Below, in pieces: positions 16,891 to 50,873 of a DNA stretch of 64,000 nucleotides. The position numbers were made by a program, and so were the translations under genes. A model generated the notes under the pieces. It had not been told where the DNA came from. It did no database searches and saw nothing but the letters and a program-made list of their open reading frames with translations. Origin of the DNA: Octopus vulgaris (Eukaryota); contig OX597830.1 of the NCBI GenBank assembly GCA_951406725.2, positions 1,364,001 through 1,428,000 of the forward strand, in the 5' to 3' direction. Numbering within the stretch: the first letter of the stretch is position 1; each line of letters starts with the position of its first letter.

Positions 16891-17612
16891 TTTCAGATAC
16901 TCCATCTTCTAATTAGCCTTAAGATTAAATAACGTTTAATACTGTTTATTGTTAATAATTTTTCAGATACTCCATCTTCTAATTAGCCTTAAGATTAAAT
17001 AACGTTTAATACTGTTTATTGTTAATAATTTTTCAGATACTCCATCTTCTAATTAGCCTTAAGATTAAATAACGTTTAATACTGTTTATTGTTGATAATT
17101 TTTCAGATACTCCATCTTCTAATTAGCCTTAAGATTAAATAACGTTTAATACTGTTTATTGTTAATAATTTTTCAGATACTCTATCTTCTAATTAGCCTT
17201 AAGAATAAACAACGTTTATTACCCACACTTTAACATCTAATTTTTTAATTTTTTACCCACACTCTAATATCTCTCTAATTAGCCTTTTTACCCACATTTT
17301 AAATATTTGTTAATATATTTTCAGATACTCTATCCTCTAATTAGCCTTAAGATTAAATAACGTTTTACCCACACTTTAACTTTAACTTTTTCACCCACAC
17401 TTTAATATATTTTTGGATGCTCTACCTTCTAATTAGCCTCAAGATTAAATAACGATTATTACCCACACTTTAATATAATTGTAATATTGTTAACATATTT
17501 TCAGATACTCTATCCTCTAATTAGCCTTAAGATTAAATAACGTTTTTACCCACAAACTTTAATATTGTTAATATTAATAATACTCTATCCCATAATTAGC
17601 CTTAAGATTAAA
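16891..17612 (+). repeat. 70-bp tandem monomers decaying into sub-repeats; probable 5' UTR of the family A LINE
   Basis: tttcagatactc(c/t)atcttctaattagccttaaga starts at 16891, 16961, 17031, 17101 and 17171, followed by degenerate copies up to ORF1. Confidence 0.85.
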
Positions 17613-17673
17613 TATCTTCTTGTCTTCTCTCGAACATAGTTAAATAGATAAACAAATAGACAGATCATCCAGC

Positions 17674-18582
17674 ACGTCCAGAGCATGGAGACCTGACGAG
17701 CTGGATTTATTCGTACAAGCATGGGAGTGCACCGGCGGAGATAGCCCTAGCGAGGTGATTGCGGCTGCGCTGAAGAGCAGAGGCTACAAGAGGACAGCGG
17801 CTCAGATGGAGCGAAAGAGACGGGAATTCGTGCGCTCATATGCGCTTGTACGGTCGCACATTGGCGCACTTGATGCCATCTTTGAGAACGAGCGGGGCAA
17901 AGATGGCAAGAATGGAGACGATGAAAGAAGTCACCCCCACCTGGTGGATGCCCGGGAGGAGGTTTTGAATGAGAAACCTGCCCGGGAAGTGAACCCAGAT
18001 GCAAGTTCTCCAACCGGCAGCAAAGGCCATGGAGACGGAGAACCCGGTGAAGAGGTAGAGGGAGGAGGAAGAACTAAAAGAAGGGCTGGTAGAGCTAAAG
18101 GAAAAGCTCAAGCAGGACCAAAGGGTGAAAAAACCAGGAATAGAGGTGGAACCGCAAAAGATGGAAACGGACAGCGCACACAGGTGTGTAGGTTCTACCT
18201 GAGAGGTTCCTGCTGTTATGGAAAGGAAGGTGCAGGCTGCCGCTTTGCACATCGGGGACCCTGCCACAGAGACACGAGGCAGATGGACAAACCATCAACA
18301 CAAGGAAAAGGGATGGACCACGCACCACTTGCCCCAAAGCGGAGGTACGCAGATGTTGTGCGTGCCACAAACCACCAACATGATGTTGTCGAAAGGGCAG
18401 CTTCTGAGCAACAATCTGTTTTGTGCATGGCACAAAAGATTGTACAGCAGCTGACCTGGCTTCATCAAACCCAAGCCCGAAGGTGGGACTACCCACTATA
18501 TACCAGACCATCACCACAGCAAACAGACCCAGGATGGACACCACCGGCAACAACGTACACCTCACCTCGATGCTCCTACTGA
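17674..18582 (+). CDS. LINE family A ORF1 (Myb/SANT-like + CCCH); ACG at the position of the family B ATG
   Basis: Frame open from 17644. ACG-TCC-AGA-GCA-TGG (TSRAWRPDELDLFVQAW) aligns with family [18 protein letters not shown]; CCCH finger CRFYLRGSCCYGKEGAGCRFAH. Confidence 0.75.
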   Translation, partial: TSRAWRPDELDLFVQAWECTGGDSPSEVIAAALKSRGYKRTAAQMERKRREFVRSYALVRSHIGALDAIFENERGKDGKNGDDERSHPHLVDAREEVLNEKPAREVNPDASSPTGSKGHGDGEPGEEVEGGGRTKRRAGRAKGKAQAGPKGEKTRNRGGTAKDGNGQRTQVCRFYLRGSCCYGKEGAGCRFAHRGPCHRDTRQMDKPSTQGKGMDHAPLAPKRRYADVVRATNHQHDVVERAASEQQSVLCMAQKIVQQLTWLHQTQARRWDYPLYTRPSPQQTDPGWTPPATTYTSPRCSY

Positions 18583-21530
18583 ACATCAGAGGACTGCAAA
18601 CACTCAGTAACAGGACAAAAATCCCGTTCCTGAGAGATTTTGTTGCATGCAATCAAGCCGTATGCATAGCACTAACGGGAACGCACCTGAAACCGGATAT
18701 AGCAGATGCGGAGTTACACATACCACAGTATGCTGTACTACGGACCGACAGGAAAAAAAGGAGTCATGGAGGTGTTGCTATGTACATCCGTGAGGACCTC
18801 ACACCCCAGGTCCTCTTGTCATACTCAAACTCGGTGTGTGACACACTAATTGTACATATTAGGCAACTTGATGTAGTTGTGTGTGCTACATATCGCCCTC
18901 CAGATGCCCCAAGCCATGTGGGCAAGTTTGAAGACTGCCTTATAAAAATAGAAGAAGTTCTAACCACATTAGAACAACACATAAGTGTACTTCTTATGGG
19001 AAACTTCAATCTGCCAAATGTCAGATGGCCCGAGGGCCTTTCTCTCCCAGGAATGACAAGATGTGAACGAGGACAGGCGAGGTCCCTCCTGAACCTCATC
19101 AACACCCTGTACATGGAGCAGGTAATACTCCAATCAACCAGGGCAGGTAACACACTGGATCTCTGCTTCACAAATGACATGGATCTCATCCATAATGTGA
19201 AAGTGACACCGACACTACTCTCGGATCACAACATGATAGAGCTGACCATGTACGGGCCAAAAGAGAGCACGGACATGCAGCCTACAAGAAACCCCCATAA
19301 TCTTTCCAGCTTGAACTACCATAAGGCAAACTGGAAACAAATTGAGAAAGAGATCCTCAAACAAAACTGGTCTAAATTTCTCTCCTCGCCGGACATCGAC
19401 GTGAAACTTCAACAATTCATGTCTGTAATGCAAGCCATATGCTACAAATATGTCCCAGAGAGAAAGGCCACTGTACACAAGAACAAAATCCCCAGAGAGA
19501 GGAAAATTCTAATGAGACGGCGTACAAAATTTTCAAATCGCCTAAACAAACAGATTGAAAGCAGTGAAAAGTCCCGCCTAAAAATAAAACTGTTGGAAAT
19601 CGAAAAATGTCTGAAACTCTCCCATGAAAAGGAAAGAGCAGACAAAGAAGCCTGGGCTATAGACAACATAAAATCTAACCCCAGAGCTTTCTACAGGTAT
19701 GCCAAAGAAACAGCTACGGTGCACTGTAGAATAGGGCCACTCCTCGAAAAGGATGGCACACTTACAGGAAAACCAATGAGGGTAAGTGAAATACTGAATG
19801 AGCAATTCAAGAGTGTTTTCACTCCACCCCTTGGGCATCTCCAAATCACCAATCCAACTGACTTTTTTACCACTGCAGATATAAAATCAGAGGCGGCGAC
19901 GATAGATTACATCGATATAAAGGAAGACGATGTAATCAAGGCTATAGATGAAATGAAAACAGACTCAGCTACTGGCCCCGATGGATTCCCGGCAATCCTC
20001 CTAAAAGCATGTAAGAGAGTCCTAGCAAGACCACTGCAGTTCCTCTGTCAGAGCTTCCTTGCAGCTGGCAAGCTTCCAAGAAAACTGAAGGAAGGTAAAA
20101 TATGCCCCATTCACAAAGGAGGTAGCAGAGCGGAGGCCAATAACTATAGACCTATCTCTCTGACCTCACACATCAGCAAGGTCATGGAACGAATAGTCAG
20201 AAGGAAACTGATCACCTTCCTTGAAGAAAATGACTTGCTGCCCGACACCCAACATGGTTTCCGACCAGGGAGAAACTGTTTAACTCAGCTCCTACAACAC
20301 TATGACTGGGTGCTGAAACGGCTGCTCAACCACTCAAATGTGGAAGTGATATATCTCGACTTTGCAAAGGCCTTTGATAAAGTCGATCATGGAATGATAT
20401 GTCACAAACTGCGTGATATCAACATAGTTGGAAAACTGGGAGAATGGCTTCATGACTTTCTGAAAGATAGAAGTCAGGTGGTAGTGGCCAATGGGGCCAC
20501 TTCCATTAACATGCAAATAGTGAGCGGTGTTCCGCAGGGCACTGTTCTGGGACCACTACTGTCCATAATGGCCCTCTCAGACATGCCCTCAGCCACGCAG
20601 AGAGCCACGATCACAAGTTATGCAGATGATACAAAAGTTTCACAGGCAATACAGAACCCTGAGGACACTAAACACCTGCAATGTGAGCTAGACAAAATAT
20701 ACAAGTGGGCCGAAAAGAATAGCATGCAGTTCAATGCTGAAAAGTTTCAAGCTCTATACTATCAGCATGCAAAACTGAATGCAATACCCAATGAATACGC
20801 TGGACCCGGAGGAATAGCAATCCCAGAGGCACAATCAGTGCGTGACCTAGGTATTTACATGAGTGATGACGCGACCTTTCGTGTACATGTTGCTAAATTG
20901 GCAATGAAATGTAGACGACTGGCCGGATGGATCCTCAGAACCCTTAGAACAAGAGAACAAGAAACCATGATGGTCCTCTGGAAGACACTTGTCCTAAGCC
21001 ACTTTGACTACTGCTCTCAGTTATGGTCACCATCCAGTGTCAAGTTGATCACAGAGCTTGAGGCGATCCAACGTAGCTACACGAAGAAGATAGCCTCTAT
21101 GCAGAATGTAAGCTACTGGGAAAGACTCAGAAAATTAAAATTATATTCCCTGGAGCGTAGGCGGGAAAGATATGCCATAATATACATATGGAAGATCCTG
21201 GACGGAAGTGTCCTGAACTTTGGCATCGAGAGTTACGCAAATGCCAGAACTGGGCGCCACTGTGTGGTGCCTAGGACTCCAAACTTGCCATCAAGATGTA
21301 GGACAAGATTCTGTGATAGCCTGGGCTTCCGAGGCCCACAGCTCTTCAATATCCTCCCGAAGAACCTGAGAGACCTGCATGGGGTGGATACAGATGTCTT
21401 TAAAATGAAGCTGGATCTCTTCCTGTCAGGTGTCCCAGATGAACCAACTTCACGGCAGGAGGGGCAGATGAGGGCAGCTGCATCGAACTCTCTCATGCAC
21501 CAAATAGCAGTTGCTAGAAAGCCTTCATGA
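18534..21530 (+). CDS. LINE family A ORF2 (APE endonuclease + reverse transcriptase), uninterrupted
   Basis: About 1000-aa ORF; ATG in AGGATGG context shared with family B. EN motifs LNIRGL, YRPP, SDH; RT YADD. Two EN catalytic positions altered (TGTHL, GNFN). Confidence 0.92.
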
Positions 21531-21620
21531 AGTGAAACCAAGTAGCAACACCAAATGGCGGTGCCCCAGCATGGCCACAGCTCATAAGCTGAAACTGGAA
21601 ATATCAAATCAAATCAAATC

Positions 21621-21883
21621 ATATATATACATATATATATATACATACATATATATATATACATATATATATATATACATATATATATATACATATATAT
21701 ATATATACATATATATATACACATATATATATACATATATATATATATACATATATATATATACATATATATATACATATATATATATACATATATATAT
21801 ACATATATACATATATATATATATCTATCTATATATATATATATGTATATACATATATATATGTATATATATATATATATGTA
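21621..21883. repeat. (TA)n with TACA variants
   Basis: Direct reading of the sequence. Confidence 0.93.
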
Positions 21884-21948
21884 TTTACTCTTTTACTCTT
21901 TTACTTGTTTTAGCCATCCGGCTGAGGCCATGCTGGGGCACCGCCCTT
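21884..21948 (-). mobile_element. Isolated LINE/SINE 3' tail fragment
   Basis: Minus strand reads ggcggtgccccagcatggcctcagccggatggctaaaac followed by (AGTAAAAG)n; abuts (TA)n. Confidence 0.75.
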
Positions 21949-22344: not shown

Positions 22345-22597
22345 CTTGCATTTCTATAAATAAGTGCCAAAACAACTCAATCGCCACAGAAGCACTGTCT
22401 TAATGAATGACAAGGCCACATCTCCGGTGATTTCGGATTTCGATGCAGAATTTCGATGTGAATTAAGATACCCTGCATCAAAATTCAAAATTGCCGGTGA
22501 TCTATGTCCGATGGTGACATTTCCTTGCCTTTTCAGTCATTAAGATATTGCTTCTGTGGCGATTGAGTCTTTTGACTCTTATTTCTAGCAACGCTAG
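22345..22597. mobile_element. Foldback / MITE-like element
   Basis: Arms actcaatcgccacagaagca / tgcttctgtggcgattgagt, plus an inner pair ccggtgattt..gatgcag / ctgcatc..attgccgg. Confidence 0.6.
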
Positions 22598-28572: not shown

Positions 28573-28585
28573 ATATATATATATG

Positions 28586-29256
28586 TATGTGGTTGGTAGT
28601 GAATGGAATACGTTTTAAAAGTAAATCTTTGGAAACGCTTGAAAAACTGTAGCCAATAAATGGTCTTCGAATCTTCACCTGTACAGCGACTTTTTTTTTA
28701 CCTTGTTACTCTGCGGAATAAGAACATTAAAATAGTAATGTTATTATCAGTACGAACATGCTTGGTGTACATTCGAACCGGGGAACAAGCTACTCACTGG
28801 GAAAAGTATAAGAGAATCCGTCTCTTCAGTCACCTCGTAGCGCCGCTTGCCTGGTGTCCGTGTCCGAAGAGGAGATAACTACTCTGAAATACTTGCATCT
28901 AACGGTTTGGGTATGTATGCTGCAAGCTGATAAACGTGTAGACACACCGTTTGTCAAACGGGATATATTTCCCGTCAGAAACCGCACTCAGTAGCTTGTT
29001 CTCCGGTTCGAACGTGCCCCAAGCATATTCCGACCGTAATTACATTACTATCTTACTTTTCCCAGTGAGTAGCTTGTTCACCGGTTCGAATGTACACCAA
29101 GCATGTTCGTACTGATAATAACATTACTATTTTAATGTTCTTATTCCGCAGAGTAACAAGGTAAAAAACAAAGTCGCTGTATTTATTGGCTGTAGTTTAT
29201 CCAGCGTTTCCAAGGATTTATTTTTAAAACATATTCCATTCACTACCAATCACATA
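28586..29256. mobile_element. Long foldback element (~220-bp inverted arms) with a hammerhead-like motif in the spacer
   Basis: 28586-28812 is the reverse complement of 29051-29256 apart from a ~22-bp indel; a third partial arm copy lies at ~28987-29050; left end abuts (TA)n. Confidence 0.75.
28858..28905 (+). ncRNA. Degenerate hammerhead-like motif (CCGAAGA core variant)
   Basis: CCGU-GU-CCGAAGA-GGAG-auaacua-CUCU-GAAA-UACUUGCA-UC-UA-ACGG; stems I and III are imperfect. Confidence 0.4.
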
Positions 29257-30072
29257 AATTTAATCTCAGAGTAACATTTTTTGAAAGCAAAGTAGAGGCA
29301 TTCATTTCGAAATTACAGTAAATTTACTCTGCTTGGTACCAGTTCTCTTCTTATACTCTCGTAATTATCGAATCACGTATTTGCTTGGTTTTTCAACTTT
29401 CACTCCTCCCTATACCTGCTACATCATTTTCCATAGCGATTCGTCAACTTCATTTCATACAAGTATCAAATGCAATCACAAAGAAAGAACATCAACACAT
29501 GCTTGTGTCTGGCTGTCTAACCATCCATCGACGAATCAATCGGTTAATTCTACGTGCATACACTCACGCACACACAAATCTATGCATACATACCCGCATA
29601 GATACAGTCAGATATACATACATAAATGCATACATACGTACATATATATACACACATACATATATTTAAATATGTATGCATGTTTCTATATATGTATACA
29701 GAGAGTGAAAGAGATGTATAGATATATTTATATAGATAACTATGTATGCTTGTATATATATATATACATACGTATGTATGTATATACATGTGTATTTATG
29801 CATATAATGATTACATACAAACATACATACGTAATACATATATAAACTGGTATCTTTGGTTGTATATACTTTCTGTTTATTTCCCATGTAAGAGGTTTTT
29901 TGCGTGCCACATAATTATTGGATTTGTTGCCAATTTAAATAAAATATTGGGGAAAAAGTGATTCTGTCAATAGTCATTAATTTTATTTTCTGGAGTAAAA
30001 ACCCAAGCACCATTTGAATTACAGAAGGTAATAGATGAATGCAGACCTCTTTTTGCTCACAGAGAAACATAG

Positions 30073-31122: not shown

Positions 31123-32994
31123 CTATCCGTTTTCTTTAGGGGACCAAAAACGTAACAGAAATTTAGTCATATGTGGGCATGATCCGAAAAGCTCTGTCCT
31201 TGTGTTTAGACATGTGGTAGGGTCTAAGCTGCTTTTCCAGATAAGCCATCTCTCCATGTCGCATAAACCGCACCTTCCGCTGCCGTTAGTATAGGGCTTA
31301 CATCTGGCCAAAATCTTCCATTGTATGTTATAATCGACACCTTTATCTCTTAAAGACCAAATATGATTGGATAATTGTGTCGCTTTTCTTTTGTTCCAGT
31401 GCCTAAAGCTCAAAGTGTGGTTATTGAACCTGGCCTTGAAATTACCCTCTGTCAGGCCCACGTATTTCTTCGTCGAAACGGTGTCTTTAGTGGTTATAGA
31501 GTTTACGGTAGCTTCATATATGATGGTCTTTAGCGGGCACAATTCTTTATTCCTGCATGAACAGCTGTTTTCTTCTTGTGTTTTTTGTATGTTATGATTG
31601 ATTATGTTTTTAAAATTGGTAGTTGAACTAAAACTAATTTTTAAATTGTGTCTATTGAAAAGTTTCCTATAAGCATGGTTAACTGGAAAATGTCTATCTA
31701 TCAGTGCTAGGAAATATTTACCTATATTGAAGGCCACCTCGGGTGAGTAAGGGGGCGTAAACCAGATGACCTTCCTATTTCTATTATTCCTTTTCCTTAT
31801 TGTTGGGCTGGTGATAGGTGTATATTTTATTTTTTCGCTAAAACCACTATCTTTTAAAGCTTTATTATAAACTGGGGCAACGCTATTGAAGATGTCCTCA
31901 TTAGATGAGAGGCTAGAAATCCTCTTACTAATATTTTTAACTAAATTTTTGAATACTATAGGGGGATGGCATGAACCTACATTAATATAACTTAGTCTAT
32001 CATTGGGCTTCCTATAAGGCTTATAAATATTATTATTAAGATCTAAGGAAACGTCTAAGAAATTGACAACCGTCAGGTTAGTGTCTATAGTTATACTAAG
32101 TCCGAAGTGTTTCATTAACTGGATAATATCCTTCCTAAAACGATCTTGTGCTGGTCCATTTGTATTAGCTGTTAAGGCGAGGGCATCATCTTTGTAGATG
32201 GCGAAATGTACGTTAGGGAATGTCTTACCGAAGGTATCTAGGAGAAAGAGTCCAATTAGATCACAGATGCCTGCCCCATCATATGAACCCATGCTCACAT
32301 CGAAAGCGCCCTCCGTGTCGGTGTTTTTTACCCACTTTGCATTCTCACTGAAAAGTAATGTCTTTCTAGCATGGAAGATTATATCCTTATCATTGGTACT
32401 AATTTCTATGAAGTCACTAGCGAAGATTAGGGCTTTATCTAGCAGTTCTTTAGAGATAGAGGCATAAAAATCAACAATATCGAATTGTGTAAACCTCGCT
32501 TTTTTCTTATTCTTAATAGCTTTAAACCAGTCTACGACTTCTATACTATTGGACCATTGCACTAGCCTAGTATCGGTCTTAATTTTCGTATTTATTTTAT
32601 CTAAAATTTCTTTGCTAATAATCCCTAGTTCTGACTTGGCTGGGTTGATAAGCCTACATTTAGGGTTGGAAAGGAAGTTTTCTTTGTGGTCTTTAATAGT
32701 AATAAAGGCCTCTTTTTGGGGGAGGGTTTCTATTTTTTTATCTAATTTAAGTTTAGCGGCGATGACGCTAGCTTCTTTATTAATTTCGTTATATGTCTGT
32801 GCCCTAGCCTTAGTATAATTATTAATGATGCTGTTGTGTAAGAGTTGTGTGTATTTGCTGTTATCTACCAGGTATAAGTTCTTGGTTTTATCCGAAAAAA
32901 GTGCTTTTTTCTTGGAGCTTTTTATATGATCAATATCTTTTTTCAATTTATGTTGGAAATTGTTAAAAGACTTACGAAACTTTATTTTGCTCAT
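31123..32994 (-). CDS. Penelope-like RT + GIY-YIG endonuclease (N-terminally truncated)
   Basis: KCRLINPAKSELG, FDIVDFYASI, MGSYDGA, YKDD (YRDD expected), CSCRNKELCPL, IIYEA..YVGLTEGNFKARFNNH, CGLC. Confidence 0.88.
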   Translation of the reverse strand: MSKIKFRKSFNNFQHKLKKDIDHIKSSKKKALFSDKTKNLYLVDNSKYTQLLHNSIINNYTKARAQTYNEINKEASVIAAKLKLDKKIETLPQKEAFITIKDHKENFLSNPKCRLINPAKSELGIISKEILDKINTKIKTDTRLVQWSNSIEVVDWFKAIKNKKKARFTQFDIVDFYASISKELLDKALIFASDFIEISTNDKDIIFHARKTLLFSENAKWVKNTDTEGAFDVSMGSYDGAGICDLIGLFLLDTFGKTFPNVHFAIYKDDALALTANTNGPAQDRFRKDIIQLMKHFGLSITIDTNLTVVNFLDVSLDLNNNIYKPYRKPNDRLSYINVGSCHPPIVFKNLVKNISKRISSLSSNEDIFNSVAPVYNKALKDSGFSEKIKYTPITSPTIRKRNNRNRKVIWFTPPYSPEVAFNIGKYFLALIDRHFPVNHAYRKLFNRHNLKISFSSTTNFKNIINHNIQKTQEENSCSCRNKELCPLKTIIYEATVNSITTKDTVSTKKYVGLTEGNFKARFNNHTLSFRHWNKRKATQLSNHIWSLRDKGVDYNIQWKILARCKPYTNGSGRCGLCDMERWLIWKSSLDPTTCLNTRTELFGSCPHMTKFLLRFWSPKENG

Positions 32995-33409
32995 GATCTT
33001 CAGCAGGTCCGCTTCACATAATATTGAGGTCTCTTTCTTTCTTTTGTTATCTTACCGTTTTATCAATATATATATATATATATATAAAGCTATTATAGCT
33101 GATGCACACTGGCGCACATACACATAAATAACGGTTGCTGGATTGCCATTTACTATTACCTGAATATTTTTAATTGAGAAATAATTTAAAATGCGTTTCG
33201 TGGACAGGATAGATATTTGTGATTCTTCACAAAATTCCTCCCCCCACATCATGTTCACATGCATAGAGTCATAAAATACAAATACACAAAGTTAGATCTT
33301 AGTGATAAACGTTTTGATAATTGAGTGATATACGTTTTGTGATATCTTGATATTATTTATCAAGTGTTATACAATATACCCTCTTGATATATATATATAT
33401 GTATATTAT

Positions 33410-33772
33410 CCGAAATATATAGTCTTACATATCCATCACAGCTGATCATACCAATCGGTTTCGCGCAAGGAATACAATGGAGTGTTAGGTAATAATCCGA
33501 TTATATAACCTTATGCTCATCAGAGTTAGCCCTTATGACAGGGAATATGGCGACTGCTCTCTATTCGAGGAGGTGGATTCTGACAATGTGCAAGTAAGTG
33601 GCGAGATGGATCCGACAATAGAGAGCGGCCGCCATATTCCATTCCATATCGACTAACTCTGATTAGAGTGAGTTGAAATAAATGGATTGTTGCATAACAC
33701 TCCATTGTACTCTTTGAGCGAAACTGACTGGCACGATCAGCCTTGATGGATATATAATACTATATATTTCGG
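33410..33772. other. 363-bp rod-like inverted repeat carrying hammerhead-like cores in opposite polarities
   Basis: About 155-bp imperfect arms. Minus strand: CUGAUGA (33517-33523)..GAAAC-CGAUUG-GUA. Plus-strand mirror: CUGAUUA (33659-33665)..GAAAC-UGACUG-GCA. Confidence 0.65.
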
Positions 33773-34908: not shown

Positions 34909-35074
34909 TATTATTATTATTATTATTATCTATATATATTATTTGCTTATTCATATAACATTCCATCATTCCGTTACATCATTATTATTAGGTTCTAAAT
35001 GACACGTGAAAATCAAAGTTGGAAATTCTGTGAGTTATGATAAAAAATTGGCTTATTAGAAATTACAACCGAAT

Positions 35075-35460
35075 GGCAAAATTAATAGAGATCATAAAAT
35101 CCAAGAGTGTACTGCCTTGCACCGTTTATGTTAAAATAAGAGTTGAATTAACTCCAAAGCAACTGAAGTAGTATACTTAATGACTTTTGAAAATCAGCTC
35201 CTGTTTTGAGTGTGTTTTCTTATAAGATTGACAAATGAAGTTGAGTTTAACCCTTGGCATTAGGAGCCGCTGATGAGAATTAAGGTGGTCTACACCAAGA
35301 TTTGAAATCGCGATATGGCTACATACATTAAGGACTTACCTCCCTTCGCTAGTTATTAAGTGTAGTGCTTTAGTGGCTTTGGAGTAAATTTAACTCATAT
35401 TTTATTATAAGCGATGCTAGTCAACACCCTCCATTACTTTTGTGACTCCTATTAATTTTG

Positions 35461-35462
<2 letters not shown>
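35075..35462 (+). mobile_element. Non-coding foldback element enclosing a hammerhead ribozyme (retrozyme-like)
   Basis: Arms 35075-35185 and 35351-35462 are reverse complements with many plus-strand G-U-compatible differences; right end abuts (TA)n. Confidence 0.7.
35265..35320 (+). ncRNA. Type I hammerhead ribozyme with palindromic stem III
   Basis: AGCCG-CUGAUGA-GAAUU-aa-GGUG-gucua-CACC-aa-GAUUU-GAAA-UCGCGA-UA-UGGCU; complete core, AUA triplet ending at 35315. Confidence 0.85.
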
Positions 35463-35490
<28 letters not shown>

Positions 35491-35499
<9 letters not shown>

Positions 35500-35600
35500 T
35501 AAAACAGTTTGAAAACGGTACTATATAAATTTAGATTTTCTAAGAAAATCAAAATTTATCTTATATAGTGGCGTTTTCAAACTTCTTTTTTATAAATATA
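35491..35600. other. 110-bp imperfect palindrome between (TA)n tracts
   Basis: agtttgaaaacg / cgttttcaaact, actatataa / ttatatagt, gattttct / agaaaatc. Confidence 0.6.
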
Positions 35601-35628
35601 TACCCGCTCATATACCACCTACACTTAT

Positions 35629-35714
<86 letters not shown>

Positions 35715-42503: not shown

Positions 42504-43708
42504 TTGATTGATTGATTGATTGATTCCAGTTCCAGCCTATGAGCTGTGGCCATGCTGGGGCACCGCCATTTGGTGTTGCTACTTGGTTTTACTTCATGGG
42601 GGCTTTCTAGCAACTGCTATTTGGTGCATGAGAGAGTTCGATGCAGCTGCCCTCATCTGCCCCTCCTGCCGTGAAGTTGGTTCATCTGGGACACCAGACA
42701 GGAAGAGATCCAGCTTCATTTTAAAGACATCTGTATCCACCCCATGCAGGTCTCTCAGGTTCTTCGGGAGGATATTGAAGAGCTGTGGGCCTCGGAAGCC
42801 CAGGCTATCACAGAATCTTGTCCTACATCTTGATGGCAGGTTTGGAGTCCTAGGCACCACGCAGTGGCGCCCAGTTCTGGCATTTGTGTAACTCTCGATG
42901 CCAAAGTTCAGGACACTTCCCTCCAGGATCTTCCAGATGTATATTATGGCATATCTTTCCCGCCTACGCTCCAGGGAGTATAATTTTAATCTCTTGAGTC
43001 TTTCCCAGTAGCTTACATTCTGCATAGAGGCTATCTTCTTTGTGTAGCTTCGTTGGATCGCCTCAAGTTCTGTGATCAACTTGACACTGGATGGTGACCA
43101 TAGCTGAGAGCAATAGTCAAAGTGGCTTAGGACAAGTGTCTTCCAGAGGACCATCATGGTTTCTTGTTCTCTTGTTCTAAAGGTTCTAAGAATCCAGCCA
43201 GCCAGCCGTCTACATTTCACTGTCAGTTTAGCAACATGTACATGAAAGGTCGCGTCATCACTCATGTGAATACCCAGGTCACGCACTGATTGTGCCTCTG
43301 GGATTGCAATCCCTCCGGGTCCAGTGTATTCGTTGGGTATTGCATTCAGTTTTGCATGCTGATAGTATAAAGCTTGAAACTTTCCAGCATTGAACTGCAT
43401 GCTATTCTTTTCAGCCCACTTGTATATTTCGTCCAGCTCACATTGCAGGTTTTTAGTGTCCTCAGGGTTCTGTATTGCCTGTGAAACTTTTGTATCATCT
43501 GCATAACTTGTGATCGTGGATCTCTGCGTGGCTGAGGGCATGTCTGAGAGGGCCATTATGAACAGTAGTGGTCCCAAAACAGTGCCCTGTGGAACACCAC
43601 TCATTATTTGCGTGTTAATGGAAGTGGCCCCATTGGCTACTACCACCTGACTTCTATTCTTCAGAAAGTCGTGAAGCCATTCTCCTAGTTTTCCAACTAT
43701 GCCAAGAT

Positions 43709-43709
<1 letters not shown>
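42504..43709 (-). mobile_element. 5'-truncated CR1-group LINE, family A, solitary copy
   Basis: ORF 42594-43646 is nearly identical to the family A RT; (ATCA)n tail; 5' junction abuts (TA)n 43711-43741. Confidence 0.95.
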
Positions 43710-43744
<35 letters not shown>

Positions 43745-45313
43745 TGAATATTACATTTCTCATCCAGTAATATTAATCAATAACTTCAAAATGTAAAAGC
43801 TAATTCTGATCGATTCTGTAGATTTGTTGTTGGTCACACAATTGTGGTGAGGAGTTATAGCCGAGATACATTAACTCTCTGATAGTTGTTAGGTTTTCGA
43901 ATTTACTGAGCAGATATTAATAACTTCCACCCTCTACAATTCAAAAACTAACATTCTTCCTTACCCAGATCCCAATTTAGAAAAATGTATTAAACACAGT
44001 ATTTAGATATTAAATCTGATATGTTCAATTTATGCACACCTTTCATCGATTCTTATACATTTATTGACGGTCATTAGATATAAATGTGGCACTTTTTTTC
44101 AATATTTTTTCTCCTAATTTTCTCTTATTTGTTGTTGCTGTTGGTGTTTCAATGCTTTACAAATTTTGAGCAACTTCGTTTATTTTCTAGATAACATTAA
44201 ATAATATTTATTTTCTACTTCTTTATCTTTTTATTCTTTTTGTCTACTTCATCCTCTATTTCGTCTCGTTTTACCACCACTTCTTCCTCTTTATCACCTT
44301 GTTCTACAGCATCTTTTATTTCTTCTTCTTTCAATACATTATCATCTACTCCGTCTCCTTTTTCTTTTCTTTCAACTTTTTCTACTTTGTTACCTTTATG
44401 TATTCATATATTTAATTCTGTATTTTTGTACATTTCGCAGACATTTCATTGAAAATTTAACTTTTTTCAAATAACTGCTATTCAGATTGATTTCTCAGTT
44501 TATTTACTAAGAAGAAGTCTTATTGATTCAGCACTTTAGTCAAAGTAATACAATTTCTTCGTTTCATTATCTTTTTTTTCTGTTTTTGTTTTCAATATTC
44601 AGTTGAGAATCTTTAAGTTATTGCAATTCAATACAGATTCTTGTTCTTACATGTGTGTGATTAAATTGTGTTCTTGTTGCTTTTTTTATTTATTAACTGT
44701 TCAAAATATTTATCAATCTTATTTTACAATTTAATAATTTGAATTTTTACTTAATTACTTTCTCTAATTCATAGTCAGAACTAATTTCTAAATAATTGTA
44801 AATTCTTCAGTGTTTTAGTGTTAAATGAAACTTTTGCAAAATCATCATTTAAATTTCTTCATCAATTTTGTTGAGACGAAGTAGAAGACAGATCTATGTG
44901 ACATATTTTAGACTGCCACGAGTTCAAATGATCCTTATTATTACCACTATGGAATGCAGTTCCACGCTCCAATTTCTTCTGTCGGACCGACGAAACGGAC
45001 TCTCACCGAAATGATAGCCAAATCGGCCTCATTCTACGCTTTGACGTTTCGAAAAAAATAGACTTTTTGGCTGAGGTAAACCTATGTATATTGGCTGTAT
45101 AAAAGAAGGGATTGTCACCAACGGAATAACTTAGATCAAATTTCCGTTAAATAACTTCGGAACTGTTACTAAATGTATCTGACCGAGAACAGATTATTAT
45201 TTCGGTTAACTTTTATCGGATATGCAACAGAAAACAAAATATTCCCATCGGAAATTTATTTATATAATACGAGTAAACCACTTCAATACTCTTTGTTATT
45301 TTAAAGATATGCA

Positions 45314-45680
<367 letters not shown>

Positions 45681-45859
45681 TTTATTTCATATAATTTGCC
45701 ATTTAGGCATTTACAAAGAGGGAACAAACAAGGACAGACAAATATAAAGGGTGAAGTAGCTTAACACAGTTACAATTTTCGAATGAAATTACGGATAAGA
45801 TTATAAACAATGAATTTTACGAAGGCAATGTTTAAAGATATTAATGATCATGTCGAAGG

Positions 45860-48800
45860 ACGGACACCCAACCATCCGGGTAGAACCTTTACTTTCTGAT
45901 CCGGTCACACTTACCTGGTGCCAAACATACCCATCTTGTATGCCACAGGCTTCCATCTTTTCACAAACATATCTCGTGACAGACACCTCTTCTCCAGCCT
46001 GATTTTGCTACTGAGGTGGTAACTAAAAAAGTTAATCAACCCCTGGCCTGAGACAAAGGTGCCTGTCACTATACCTTTCGTACGCGTCTTCCATACTGTT
46101 TCTTTCAGTATGGCTACTACACAGAAAAACAAGCCTTTCTTTCCCTGTTAAGGAAAGGGGGCGGCACAATCTCGATGATAGACTCAGCTGATAGCTGTAC
46201 TCTTCCCATCACTGACAACAGTTGTTCAACAAAAGCTATCAGTCCCGATAACTCCGGACACTCCACGAATGCGTGCAAGACGGTCTCCCTATCCTGCTCA
46301 CATCGCGGGCATGTCGGCGAGACGGCACTACCGTGCCTTGACAGCTTGTCGCGAACAGGTAAAGCCGCACGGAAACACTGCCAGGCCAGGGATTTCTGGT
46401 AATTATCCAGACACCCCGGCCCGAACGTCCTCCGGAATAGGTTGACCAACTGATTTTCATCGTAGCCCAGGGTCTCCCCCAAGGCGTCTTCGGACTTAAT
46501 CTCCACTAACCCGCTATAGAAATCCGTGGTGGAACTCCTGTTGCCGGCGTTGCCCACCCGAGATAGTAGCTGGAGCGCCTGACGGCACTCCAAATGCCAT
46601 TCACTCAGTTTAGGTCTCCGCTTGATCCATGCACCGATGTCCGTTAGGGATGTTAACTGGGGAAGGTAGAACCGGACGTGCGGCGACCACACCTGCTCTC
46701 CATCCAGGTAAAGCCAGAGGTGCCTCAACCTTAACGCGAGTTTTCGCATCCTCAGCCAAGGCATCCCTAGCCCACCCTTTAGCGGTTTCTGGCAGCAGAC
46801 AGAGCGCTTTACAAGTGGCTTTCCTCCTTTCCACAAAAATCGGAAAAGGATTCTCTCCAACTTGTTCAGCCACAAATCGGGGCAAGGCACCACGGTCAGA
46901 CGGTAGGTGATTACTGATGCTATAAACATCTGCACCACCTCTGCCTTCCCTAGCAGGGATAACGCCCGCCCAGACCAGGTCTGGGTTAGAGCGGTCACCT
47001 TGTTGGCCACCTCACTCCAATTTTTCTCAATCTGGAGGTCTGGCCCGAACCAGACTCCGAGCAGCTTAACAGGACCTTCCGTCCAACGCCCTACGACGTT
47101 ATTGGACGGCATCGGCTTGCCCCTCCAGGTGCCGAGTTGCAAACCGACCGACTTGTCCTTGTTAACCTTTGCTCCTGCCACCGCCTCGTAGCTTTTGATG
47201 GCCTCTTCCACCACTGGAAGCTGGCCTTCGTCTGCCACGATGATGGAGGTGTCATCCGCATACGCCGTAGCTCCTCTTCCACACAATAGATCATGCGGCG
47301 CGCCCCCTAGTGCCTCCAACTTCCGCAGCAAAGGCTCAAGAGCCAATACGTATAGGAGCGAGGACAGGGGACACCCATGACGAACTGAACGCTCGATCCT
47401 GAACGGCTTCGAAAAGGAACCGTTCACCTTGACTACAGACTCGATGTCGCTATACAAAGCAGCGATCCAACCTCGAAAGGTCGGGCCTTGGCCAGCCTCT
47501 CCGAGGACCGCCGCCAGGTACCGATGGTCGACCCTATCAAATGCTTTGGACTGGTCTAAATGTGCCAGTGCTCCCCCTGCGCCAGAAAGCTTCCCCACCC
47601 TCTCTAAGGAGTAGCGTATAAGGTGGAGATTGTCATGGATCGTTCTGCCGGGGATAGCGCACGTTTGCGCTTCCCCGACAAGTTTGTCCACGACCCGCGC
47701 CAACCTTTTTGCTAGCACCTTGGCCAGAATCTTTAACTCTGTGTTTAACAGAGTTATGGGCCTGAAGTTCCCTATCTCGTCCCCCTTGTTCGGGTCCTTC
47801 CTGATCAAGGTCACCGCCCCCGGCTCGCAGACTTGGGAATTCTCCCATTCTGCTGCCAGTTGGCGTAGACGCTAGCCAGCAGGTGCCCGAACAAGTCTGG
47901 CATACTTCTATAAAATTCATAGGGCAGACCATAGAGACCCGGCGACTTCTCCCCGGGGCACTTGCCCAACACCTCGATTACTTCCTCGGCTGTGATTGGC
48001 CCTTCACAGCACTCAGCCTCTCGTGTCGAGAGGCGCGGGCCACCAGACAGGAAGTCCCTAAGGGCCTCACCATGATCCAGCGTCCCGCACCTCCCGAACA
48101 ACTCGGCGAAGTGCTTGTGAAGTGCCTCACACATCTCGTCCCGCTTCTTGATCGTGCATCCGTTTTCATCAACAAGAGACCCAATTGTGACATCGTTTCC
48201 ACGCTGTGTTTCTATCGTACGGGCCCATCCGGCAACATTAATTCCCTCACGGCCCAATGCTCGTACTTTAGCCCGGACTCTACATCCCTCATGTTTGGTT
48301 TTGAGGTGACGGTCTAATGCCGTTCTCGCCGCTAAAATGTGAGATGCAGAGCCCAACCTCAACGCCTCCTCTAAGTTCTTAACTAGTTGCCCTTCTATTC
48401 TAGCCCTATCTAGTCTTAGTTGTTTACTAAATCTAATGGACTTTAATCGAATGGCTCTTTTGAGGGTGAATCACCACCTGTTATTAACCACGGCTCCGGT
48501 TAACGCCCTCTGCACTAACACCTTAATCCGGCTACGGTATGCTTCGCGTGTCAAAATAGACTTGTTCAGCTTTCAGTAGCCGGTTCCTATCTTAAGTGTG
48601 CTATCTATGTCCAGTCTACACGTGACCATTCTATGGTCAGTATAGGGCACCTGGACGAGCTGTGGACAACTAAAACTAGACTTATCTCTAGTTCTTATCA
48701 CTATCCTGTCTAGATAAGACTTGAACCTTCCGTCGCCACTCATCCAGGTCCACTCTGGGACGTTCGGATGGTCAAGTCTGTAACGATCTGCTAGCTGAAA

Positions 48801-49245
48801 CCGCTTAAGCAGATCCACGAGACGTGAGTTCACTTTCCTATAGATCGAGCCAACGCTATCGATGTGTACGTCAACGATAGCATTAAAGTCCCCTAATATC
48901 ACTAAAATCTTCGACGTCACGAGAAAGCCCTCTAGGCACCGATAAAAATCAGTTTGGAAACCTCTAGCACAAGGTGCATAGAGTCCGATCAACCTGAAGG
49001 CCTTACTGCTGTATGTCACATCAAGGACGACTAGCCCACCTTCTGGGTCTACATAGACTGTACTTGTCTGTAGAGCCAAGTCTTTACGGATCAGTACCAC
49101 TACGCCCCCTCGCCCTCCGGTCTGGCCAGGAGACATGATTTTCTCGTAGCCATTCAGGAGAGGCGAGAAGGTTTGTAGGCTGTCCAGCTTGGTCTCTGTA
49201 GCAACCATCACATGTATATCATGTGATCTGAGGTCGTCGAGGTGT
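45860..49245 (-). pseudogene. Tx1-like ORF2 (APE + RT + zf-RVT), disrupted
   Basis: ATETKL, LYAP, GDFN, YLDR, TDH; KSPG, NFRPITLLN, DQSKAFDRV, GCPLS, YADD, CPRC..ETVLHAFVEC. Split over ORFs 48573-49643, 47811-48362, 46117-47814 and 45911-46132. Confidence 0.88.
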
Positions 49246-49249
49246 CTAT

Positions 49250-50484
49250 TTCGATCTTTGTATTTGTTGTACAGTCTTGCTGACTGATGCTGAACCACAA
49301 TATCGTTTATGTATTTGTCTTGTGTGTCGAATTCAATTAATATGAGTTCATTTTCTTTTTTGTCTTCTTTTTCTGGGCCAGTTGAGCGGGATTTTTTTTT
49401 CCGTGTCTGTGGTGTGTCTTTGTTTTTATTATTTTTTGTAGGGGATGTGGACGGGGATGCTGCACGAATTCTTTTACGAACTGGTGTAAATCCCCCCTCT
49501 GATACCTCCATGGTATCGTCTGGGGTAGCAATAGTTTGTTCGGTAGGCGCCGCAGTTTTTAGGGGGGTGGGAGGTTTTAATAGTGTAGGGGTTTGTGAGT
49601 GCGAGGGCTGGGTTTTTTCTTCAGTCTGTTTTGGGGTTGGCACCGTAACAGCAGGAGTGGGCTTTTTTGTTTTTGCAGGGGTAGGTGTGTTTGCAAGGGT
49701 AGGGACTTTTTTTATTATCTGAGGGGCCTGGTGTCTGCGGTTTCTTTTGCTTGTCTGGACAGTCTACACGAATGTGGCCCTTTTTGCCGCAGGCGTAACA
49801 GGTGGGTTTTCGGCCTTCGACCTGTACCCTGAGGGCTACGTTCTCGCCCACGAGCACCCTCTCAGGAAGGAGCTGCAGGTCCTCCGCTGTTCCTTGAATT
49901 AATATATTAATGTTACGCCCGAGCCAAAATCGAGGGGTAGAGCATGTTACTTCTAGTATTTTTATTTTGTCCGCCCTATTATATAACAGGGCGGCCACTA
50001 CCTCAACCGGATCTACTTCCGGCGGGGCTTCTACAATCCTGACCCGGGACGTCCTGCGTCCCCTATAGCTTGGGAAAAGTACCACCTCCTTGGTTTTTAG
50101 GGGGTTCACAGAATGCCCGCGGGCCATTTCTTCCCCCGAGAAGCGGACATCCACAGTGCCATATGCCCGTCCCCTGGCGACGTACACGATGTCCTTCCAA
50201 ATCGGGGACAGGCATTTCTCGATGGTGCTTTTTTCAAAGTGTTTGAACCTTCTGCTTTGTGGACAGAAAGTTTTAAACACTACGGTCCGCTTCTCGGTCT
50301 CCACGATACTGGCGGAGGGTGATATTTTAACATCACCACCCTCCTCTTGCATTCTTTTAAATAGCTCGACGAGCTGGTTGACATCGATGCCAATATTCTC
50401 GGTAGCCACTGCGGCTACCGCACAAAATTTTTTAACATTGCTCTCCTCAAGAGCACTACTTTCGTGAATAATTTCAACAGACAT
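49250..50484 (-). pseudogene. Tx1-like ORF1 (gag-like, CCHC knuckle), frameshifted near 49700
   Basis: ATG at 50484 (MSVEIIHESS); CYACGKKGHIRVDC; the Pro/Thr/Lys-rich tail continues in another frame. Confidence 0.8.
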
Positions 50485-50873
50485 TATTCTGTTGAAATTA
50501 GACAACAGAAAAATTACGAGTATTGGTTTCCCACAAAACTGGGAAACCTATAGAAAGTTTTTCTTCCAAAGTAGTTCAAAAAAGCAGTTCAAAAATTCCA
50601 ATTCCCACCCCCATTCGGGGGAGGGGCACGAAAATAGTCTGGCAGGACTATATATAGTCACGTAAGTAAAAAGCCACAATGGCTAACAGTTCAACGGTAA
50701 GAAATTATCCAATTATTCCCCGGCAAAACCGGAGAACAAGACAGTTCAGCAACGTTTAAAGGCAAATTTTCAGTAGTAGAAATTCAACAATTAACAACAC
50801 AGCAAAACTCTTACCGGGAAGAAAACGCGTCCAAACCGTAGTACGGTAGGCAAAGTCACTCTTCTGTCAGTGA

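Follow-up and report, generated by a model that had tools for sequence, protein, structure and literature searches.

Metazoan non-LTR retrozymes, as described in the available parts of the published accounts (PMC7229834; 10.64898/2026.07.22.740005), are non-coding tandem repeats of low G+C with a unit of 150-450 bp, and each unit carries one type I hammerhead ribozyme (HHR) with a short palindromic helix III. Monomer derivatives are dispersed in the genome and Penelope-like elements co-occur with them; the case for a link between the two was built on their co-occurrence and on homology to pseudo-LTRs, for the most part in vertebrates (10.64898/2026.07.22.740005). Penelope-like elements also harbor HHRs with a palindromic stem III, and a palindromic, self-pairing stem III is the design of dimer-dependent metazoan HHRs (PMC4209133). 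Insertions of Penelope-like elements are 5' truncated, form partial tandems and carry an inverted 5'-truncated copy at the 5' end (PMC8557442, PMC3846280, PMC11167929), together with a one-sided tail of 30-40 bp and a bias toward microsatellites (PMC8557442, PMC3846280). In vitro, the Penelope protein of Anolis, a predicted dimer, cleaves the two target strands and extends both; it initiates at two internal sites lying on either side of the tail, and HHR cleavage is not required (PMC11167929), while self-priming on an antisense template has been proposed as an alternative route (PMC3846280). Small HHR-bearing RNAs are also described among the viroid-like and HDV-like rod circular RNAs (PMC7936874).

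The window analysed here is a stretch of 64,000 nucleotides from Octopus vulgaris (assembly GCA_951406725.2, contig OX597830.1, positions 1,364,001 to 1,428,000, forward strand). In it, an earlier note had singled out a foldback at 35075-35462 that encloses a hammerhead, and had read it as a rod-like non-coding ribozyme retroelement, selected for RNA structure. We find it very probable that this locus is instead an old, mutated copy of an HHR-bearing 334-nt repeat, preceded on its 5' side by an inverted piece of the same repeat and likely inserted by a Penelope-like enzyme acting in trans, and that the hairpin likely arose as a side effect of insertion, not through selection for a rod. Judged by its sequence, the locus is best classed as a decayed, non-autonomous Penelope-like repeat of the non-LTR retrozyme type. 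Its parts are as follows.

35041..35185, minus strand: inverted 5'-truncated piece of the unit (positions ~167-309), forming the left arm; BLAST match to a natural tandem copy, 75-76% over ~146 nt.
35041..35074, minus strand: one-sided tail with no partner at the right end; 24/34 letters match family sequence that lies, elsewhere, beyond the point where the right arm ends.
35185..35466, plus strand: forward piece of the 334-nt unit (positions 1-281), comprising loop, HHR and right arm.
35265..35320, plus strand: type I HHR motif, from sequence, energies and column counts, with predicted activity only.
35265-69/35316-20, plus strand: HHR stem I.
35270-76, plus strand: HHR core CUGAUGA.
35304-07, plus strand: HHR core GAAA.
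35307-35314, plus strand: palindrome of HHR stem III, AUCGCGAU.
After 35315, plus strand: predicted HHR cut.
35463..35494, no strand assigned: (TA)n microsatellite at the 3' end, likely the target site.
35491..35634, no strand assigned: palindromic stump derived from an autonomous Penelope-like family (its 3' end), a separate insertion (palindrome 35491-35600, one-sided tail ~35601-35634).

As seen from these parts, the (TA)n tract does follow 35462 as first described, but the left boundary had been misplaced, with element sequence running on to about 35041, which leaves no terminal inverted repeat. A MITE with 14-bp terminal inverted repeats that had captured a hammerhead could be read from 35075-35088 and 35449-35462, which form a perfect 14-bp inverted pair. 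We give this reading next to no credence, because the element extends 34 nt past the supposed left terminus, no fixed paired termini were found over 48 insertions of the family, tandem units occur frequently, and an inverted piece is lacking from many copies. What looks like a 14-bp terminal repeat just marks the point where the right-hand piece stops. The window copy itself amounts to less than one unit plus the inverted piece, and no ORF of at least 150 aa overlaps it. Its forward piece is 80% identical to a natural monomer (locus L016), with 35 of 280 columns departing from the column majority.

The family was sampled by DNA searches of the 2.8-Gb genome, which gave 485, 520 and 740 first-look candidates, the best 40 being scored each time. 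These counts imply a family of at least hundreds of copies, from which the sample analysed (48 distinct insertions, then 13 more, giving 61 loci) represents the top hits; since all analysed loci are top-scoring matches, long copies are over-represented. The unit repeats in tandem with a period of 334 in L016, and the monomer junction, unit end to unit start with no coding sequence between, is crossed in 33 of the 48 insertions; six span two predicted HHR cut sites. An inverted piece occurs in 30 of the 48, always 5' of the forward piece (30/30), and 18 have none. The inverted pieces are variable, from 30 to 285 nt long, with breakpoints that differ between loci. The family agrees with the metazoan non-LTR retrozymes, as far as the available accounts describe them (PMC7229834; 10.64898/2026.07.22.740005), in having a non-coding tandem unit within the range of about 150-450 nt, low G+C, one type I HHR per unit with a short palindromic helix III, dispersed monomer derivatives and co-occurring Penelope-like elements. 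It differs from them in that its copies, among the top matches, measure 0.6-2 units and often carry inverted 5' pieces instead of forming long arrays, in that every copy examined lies at least 3-4% from the majority, and in being known here from DNA alone. A literature search returned no paper on the 334-nt family, although supplementary HHR lists may include it.

Alternatively, the unit could be the pseudo-LTR of a rare or extinct autonomous Penelope-like element, with its copies being 5'-truncated stumps and with no free-standing retrozyme at all. The anatomy of the insertions is the same as in autonomous families, the palindrome at 35491-35600 is exactly such a stump, and one survey placed only a few of the HHR motifs of each genome within full elements (PMC4209133). 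Even so, we regard this alternative as improbable, given the tandem junctions without coding sequence (33/48), the six insertions that cross two HHR sites, and the lack of an adjacent ORF: a 781-aa Penelope-like protein, used as the one query over about 1.5 kb on each side, had no match at any of the 61 family loci. By this measure, an ORF with reverse transcriptase (RT) and GIY-YIG domains linked to the repeat, as expected of an autonomous Penelope-like element, was found at 0/61 loci.

Such ORFs, of 781 aa with RT and GIY-YIG, are present elsewhere in the genome. Neither 30 GIY-YIG loci nor three longer ones hold a genuine DNA match to the 334-nt unit, which has no sequence in common with the sampled autonomous Penelope-like family. 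The palindrome at 35491-35600, on the other hand, matches the 3' end of this autonomous family, with 79-95% identity to 20 of the 30 GIY-YIG loci and to L135, and its own search gave 1145 first-look candidates. It adjoins only one of the 48 family insertions, namely that in the window; since it follows none of the other 47, it arose separately, through an enzyme of the same type. The second palindrome noticed earlier is therefore real, but it is a separate insertion outside the element.

Next, the ends of the insertions were compared. Read along the HHR strand, forward pieces have their 3' ends concentrated at unit positions 256-281 and 311-326, and inverted pieces have their outer ends concentrated at 257-276 and 304-331, so that the outer ends occupy two sites separated by about 50 nt. 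Both outer ends lie within these two ranges in 20 of the 30 inverted insertions, and 18 of those 20 have one end at each site (Fisher p=0.0009), with the ranges drawn after the ends were known and the other 10 insertions unclassable; several of the 'B' ends lie at the edge of the reference (position 324). The second set held only two classable insertions (L111 and L127), both with one end at each site by reading of the ends. The 5' ends are scattered, and truncation at the HHR cut site was considered and rejected, as 2 of 79 truncation points lie within 5 nt of it and form no cluster. With fixed ends 3' and variable ends 5' on the HHR strand, this is likely the RNA strand. A microsatellite flanks the 3' end in 35 of the 48 insertions, against 390 of 2010 background bins (19%), and no target-site duplication was readable at the family insertions. 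The marks of Penelope-like insertion described in the available sources (PMC8557442, PMC3846280, PMC11167929) are thus present here, including 5' truncation, partial tandems, an inverted 5'-truncated copy at the 5' end, a tail at one end and microsatellite targets, and the HHR has the palindromic stem III of Penelope-like elements (PMC4209133). Unlike those insertions, the family has no ORF, and its tail spans a range of about 30-65 nt and not a sharp 30-40 nt.

A mechanism can be proposed in which source copies would be transcribed from the HHR strand as multimers or circles, and in which the HHR, probably acting as a dimer held together by its palindromic stem III, would cut the multimeric RNA of these copies. 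A Penelope-type RT/GIY-YIG protein might then nick both strands of an AT-rich target, and two cDNAs would be begun, one per start site (unit positions ~256-281 and 304-331). Both cDNAs would stop at random points and then be joined head to head, leaving arms that would be near-identical at first and would later diverge as DNA. Two head-to-head priming events of this kind would explain the arms, the variable junction and the one-sided tail. It is possible, though we hold it only tentatively and lean against it, that the template is a circular RNA and that each inverted insertion reflects two priming events by a dimer of the Penelope enzyme, one per strand and from different start sites. If true, the rule of one end at each site (18/20) would be a trace, left in the genome, of the in vitro reaction with its two strands and two starts, here acting in trans on a retrozyme, and two-start priming would be favoured over self-priming as the origin of the head-to-head repeats of Penelope elements. 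The remaining value of the locus is modest: it adds one more non-LTR retrozyme family, with a Penelope insertion signature on a non-coding HHR unit of an invertebrate genome, and gives anatomical support to the idea that Penelope-like enzymes move retrozymes.

The foldback itself was then evaluated. The arms of about 110 bp are real, since 35075-35185 and 35351-35462 give 111 paired columns with 85 Watson-Crick pairs. The remaining plus-strand columns hold 9 G-U pairs, 6 A-C pairs and 11 transversion mismatches (G-U versus A-C, p=0.61), and a count by reference projection gives 8 G-U and 7 A-C. The claim that transition differences mostly yield G-U pairs on the plus strand does not hold for the whole arms; the example offered for it came from the inner 61 bp, where 7 G-U stand against 0 A-C (p=0.016, for a subset chosen post hoc), whereas the outer part leans the opposite way, with 2 G-U against 6 A-C. 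Folding of both strands of the 388-nt stretch, the comparison proposed along with that claim, gave -141.3 kcal/mol for the plus strand (z -11.4, with 0/100 shuffles equally good) and -110.2 kcal/mol for the minus strand (z -6.5), and the long hairpin is predicted on both.

The difference of 31 kcal/mol in favor of the plus strand, the lean of the inner 61 bp and a lower variability of the HHR core columns are what can be said for a rod-like non-coding RNA retroelement whose arm pairing is under selection, with G-U tolerated on the RNA strand. However, the G-U excess is missing not only from the whole arms but also from the family, where 31 arm pairs hold 151 G-U and 159 A-C on the HHR strand (p=0.69; two of the 33 inverted pieces, L039 and L059, had no partner and were left out). 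By arm pair, 12 lean toward G-U, 11 toward A-C and 8 are tied. Likewise, six arm pairs of the second set gave 31 G-U and 39 A-C, nine foldbacks around HHRs of sister families gave 73 and 68, and the inner 61 bp of the 30 other arm pairs gave 77 and 67 (p=0.45). Of 28 other foldbacks, 16 are more stable on the HHR strand, and the mean gap over the 28 is -0.6 kcal/mol (sd 10.8). The gap of the window copy, -28.5 kcal/mol, is the largest among the 29 (z -2.6), and at least one such extreme gap among 29 would arise by chance with a probability of about 0.25. Further, the window arms share no changes and hold 11 transversion mismatches in 111 pairs, arms are variable or absent in other copies, HHR stem I has a pairing probability of 0.01 in the 388-nt fold, and the forward piece of the window copy is unstructured when folded by itself (z -0.09, with values between +0.3 and -3.0 for eight other units). 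We therefore consider a selected rod very unlikely. The strand asymmetry on which the inference of RNA-level selection in the earlier note depended is absent from the family, and of its rod-like non-coding ribozyme retroelement without DNA terminal inverted repeats, all but the rod was retained.

Because G-U pairs are no commoner than chance, the hairpin is an ordinary one. The family resembles viroid-like and HDV-like rod RNAs, as far as the available description goes (PMC7936874), in being small and HHR-bearing, and it is non-coding. Nevertheless, its unit is not a rod kept by compensatory and G-U changes, a long helix exists only with the inverted piece added at insertion, and it has one HHR on one strand only. 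Lone hairpins with a strand energy gap should be read with caution in such genomes, where they are common by-products.

The mutation pattern was also analysed. Forward pieces differ from the column majority by a median of 10.6%, and their changes are symmetric between strands, with A>G 3.6% versus T>C 3.6%, C>T 8.2% versus G>A 8.9%, and CpG loss of about 20% on either strand. In inverted pieces, written in element-sense letters, A>G reaches 5.5% versus 3.3% for T>C (p=0.015, one of six tests), an excess that runs opposite to a G-U bias on the HHR strand. These rates bear on whether the G-U pairs entered the DNA through A-to-I editing of the hairpin RNA and its later re-insertion. Three of the window's G-U pairs do arise from A>G changes, but five come from C>T, A>G equals T>C in forward pieces, and editing predicts sub-families that share a junction, whereas the observed junctions differ by locus; we see very little likelihood in it. 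The window arms carry 17 and 11 changes, none shared. Across the family, 15% of changes are common to the inverted and the forward piece within an insertion, against a baseline of 7.6%; for direct tandem pieces the figure is 18%, against 8%. The sharing being no higher in the former than in the latter, it points to a common template and not to compensation.

The HHR motif sits in the loop of the window foldback. It had been called canonical, which is right for the type I layout and the palindromic stem III but overlooks two atypical U residues and the silence of Rfam, which returned no hammerhead at the gathering score in the window and none at E<=10 in 35000-35700. The window copy has U at HHR position 11.1 (35303), although C is found there in 49 of 66 aligned pieces, and a second U at 35316, a site with C in 47 of 63; both C-to-T changes are at CpG sites, and one hits the conserved 10.1-11.1 pair. 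In the 388-nt fold, stem II forms with a probability of 0.98-0.99, and stems I and III with at most 0.01. By computed energies, the HHR monomer fold (-7.9 kcal/mol) compares with an alternative of -16.5 kcal/mol, and the stem III self-duplex has -10.1 kcal/mol. The HHR of the window copy is likely dead. The locus carries one HHR, which places it outside the 'active' retrozymes as the available text of Li et al. 2026 defines them (10.64898/2026.07.22.740005).

In the family, an exact search with the HHR pattern gave 14 matches (control 0), and the core is intact in 20 of 42 pieces not chosen by pattern. Core columns are less variable than others, with 33 changes versus 52-57 expected (p 0.0004-0.003); in the set retrieved with an HHR-free query there were 18 versus 26-28 expected (p 0.02-0.07). 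We read this low variation as function in source copies together with some search bias, and the conservation is a matter of the source-copy ribozyme, not of the arms. Of two runs taken by guess to be RNA, one yielded 10 short family-like contigs and the other 0, and the cut site was spanned by none; the contigs were mostly paralogues, with no orthologous copy among them for a pairing test.

A looser HHR pattern gave 86 matches (control 0), mostly from several sister families (L136-L165; L134:4532-4954), which have longer stem III loops and no sequence match to the 334-nt unit. An inverted pair surrounds the HHR in 9 of 25 sister-family loci examined. A fragment of a Penelope-like ORF lies near the HHR at 2 of 30 loci (L136 and L163), but was set aside as a neighbouring insertion with no shared repeat. 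At G000:C9:28582238-28667423, four near-identical sister-family HHRs lie 27-31 kb apart on one strand, a spacing that suggests a large tandem duplication. A hammerhead-like motif also occurs near the 3' end of the autonomous RT/GIY-YIG family (L133:4566, L134:4383, L135:4788), in which TTGATAA replaces CTGATGA (U3 with A8); after it come a short stem II, GAAA and a stem III that is palindromic.

Other features of the window include several LINE-type ORFs with RT, endonuclease and zinc-knuckle domains at 3029-21530 and 42594-50547, one of them of 1040 aa at 18408-21530, and a 642-aa frame at 31123-33051 on the minus strand with no Pfam match. The palindrome at 21554-21948 appeared biased (21 A-C versus 3 G-U on the plus strand), but this was rejected as an artefact of a TA/CA microsatellite between the true arms. 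A foldback at 33410-33772, with 156-nt arms, 8 G-U and 9 A-C, is possibly an inverted insertion of a different repeat family. Another, at 28580-29262, has arms of about 210 nt; its loop contains, at 28927, the motif CTGATAA...GAAA, for which a stem I is possible, and the foldback may be a hammerhead-bearing inverted insertion. Finally, 22456-22557 weakly resembles the HHR region of the family unit (70% over 103 nt) and is likely an older fragment.
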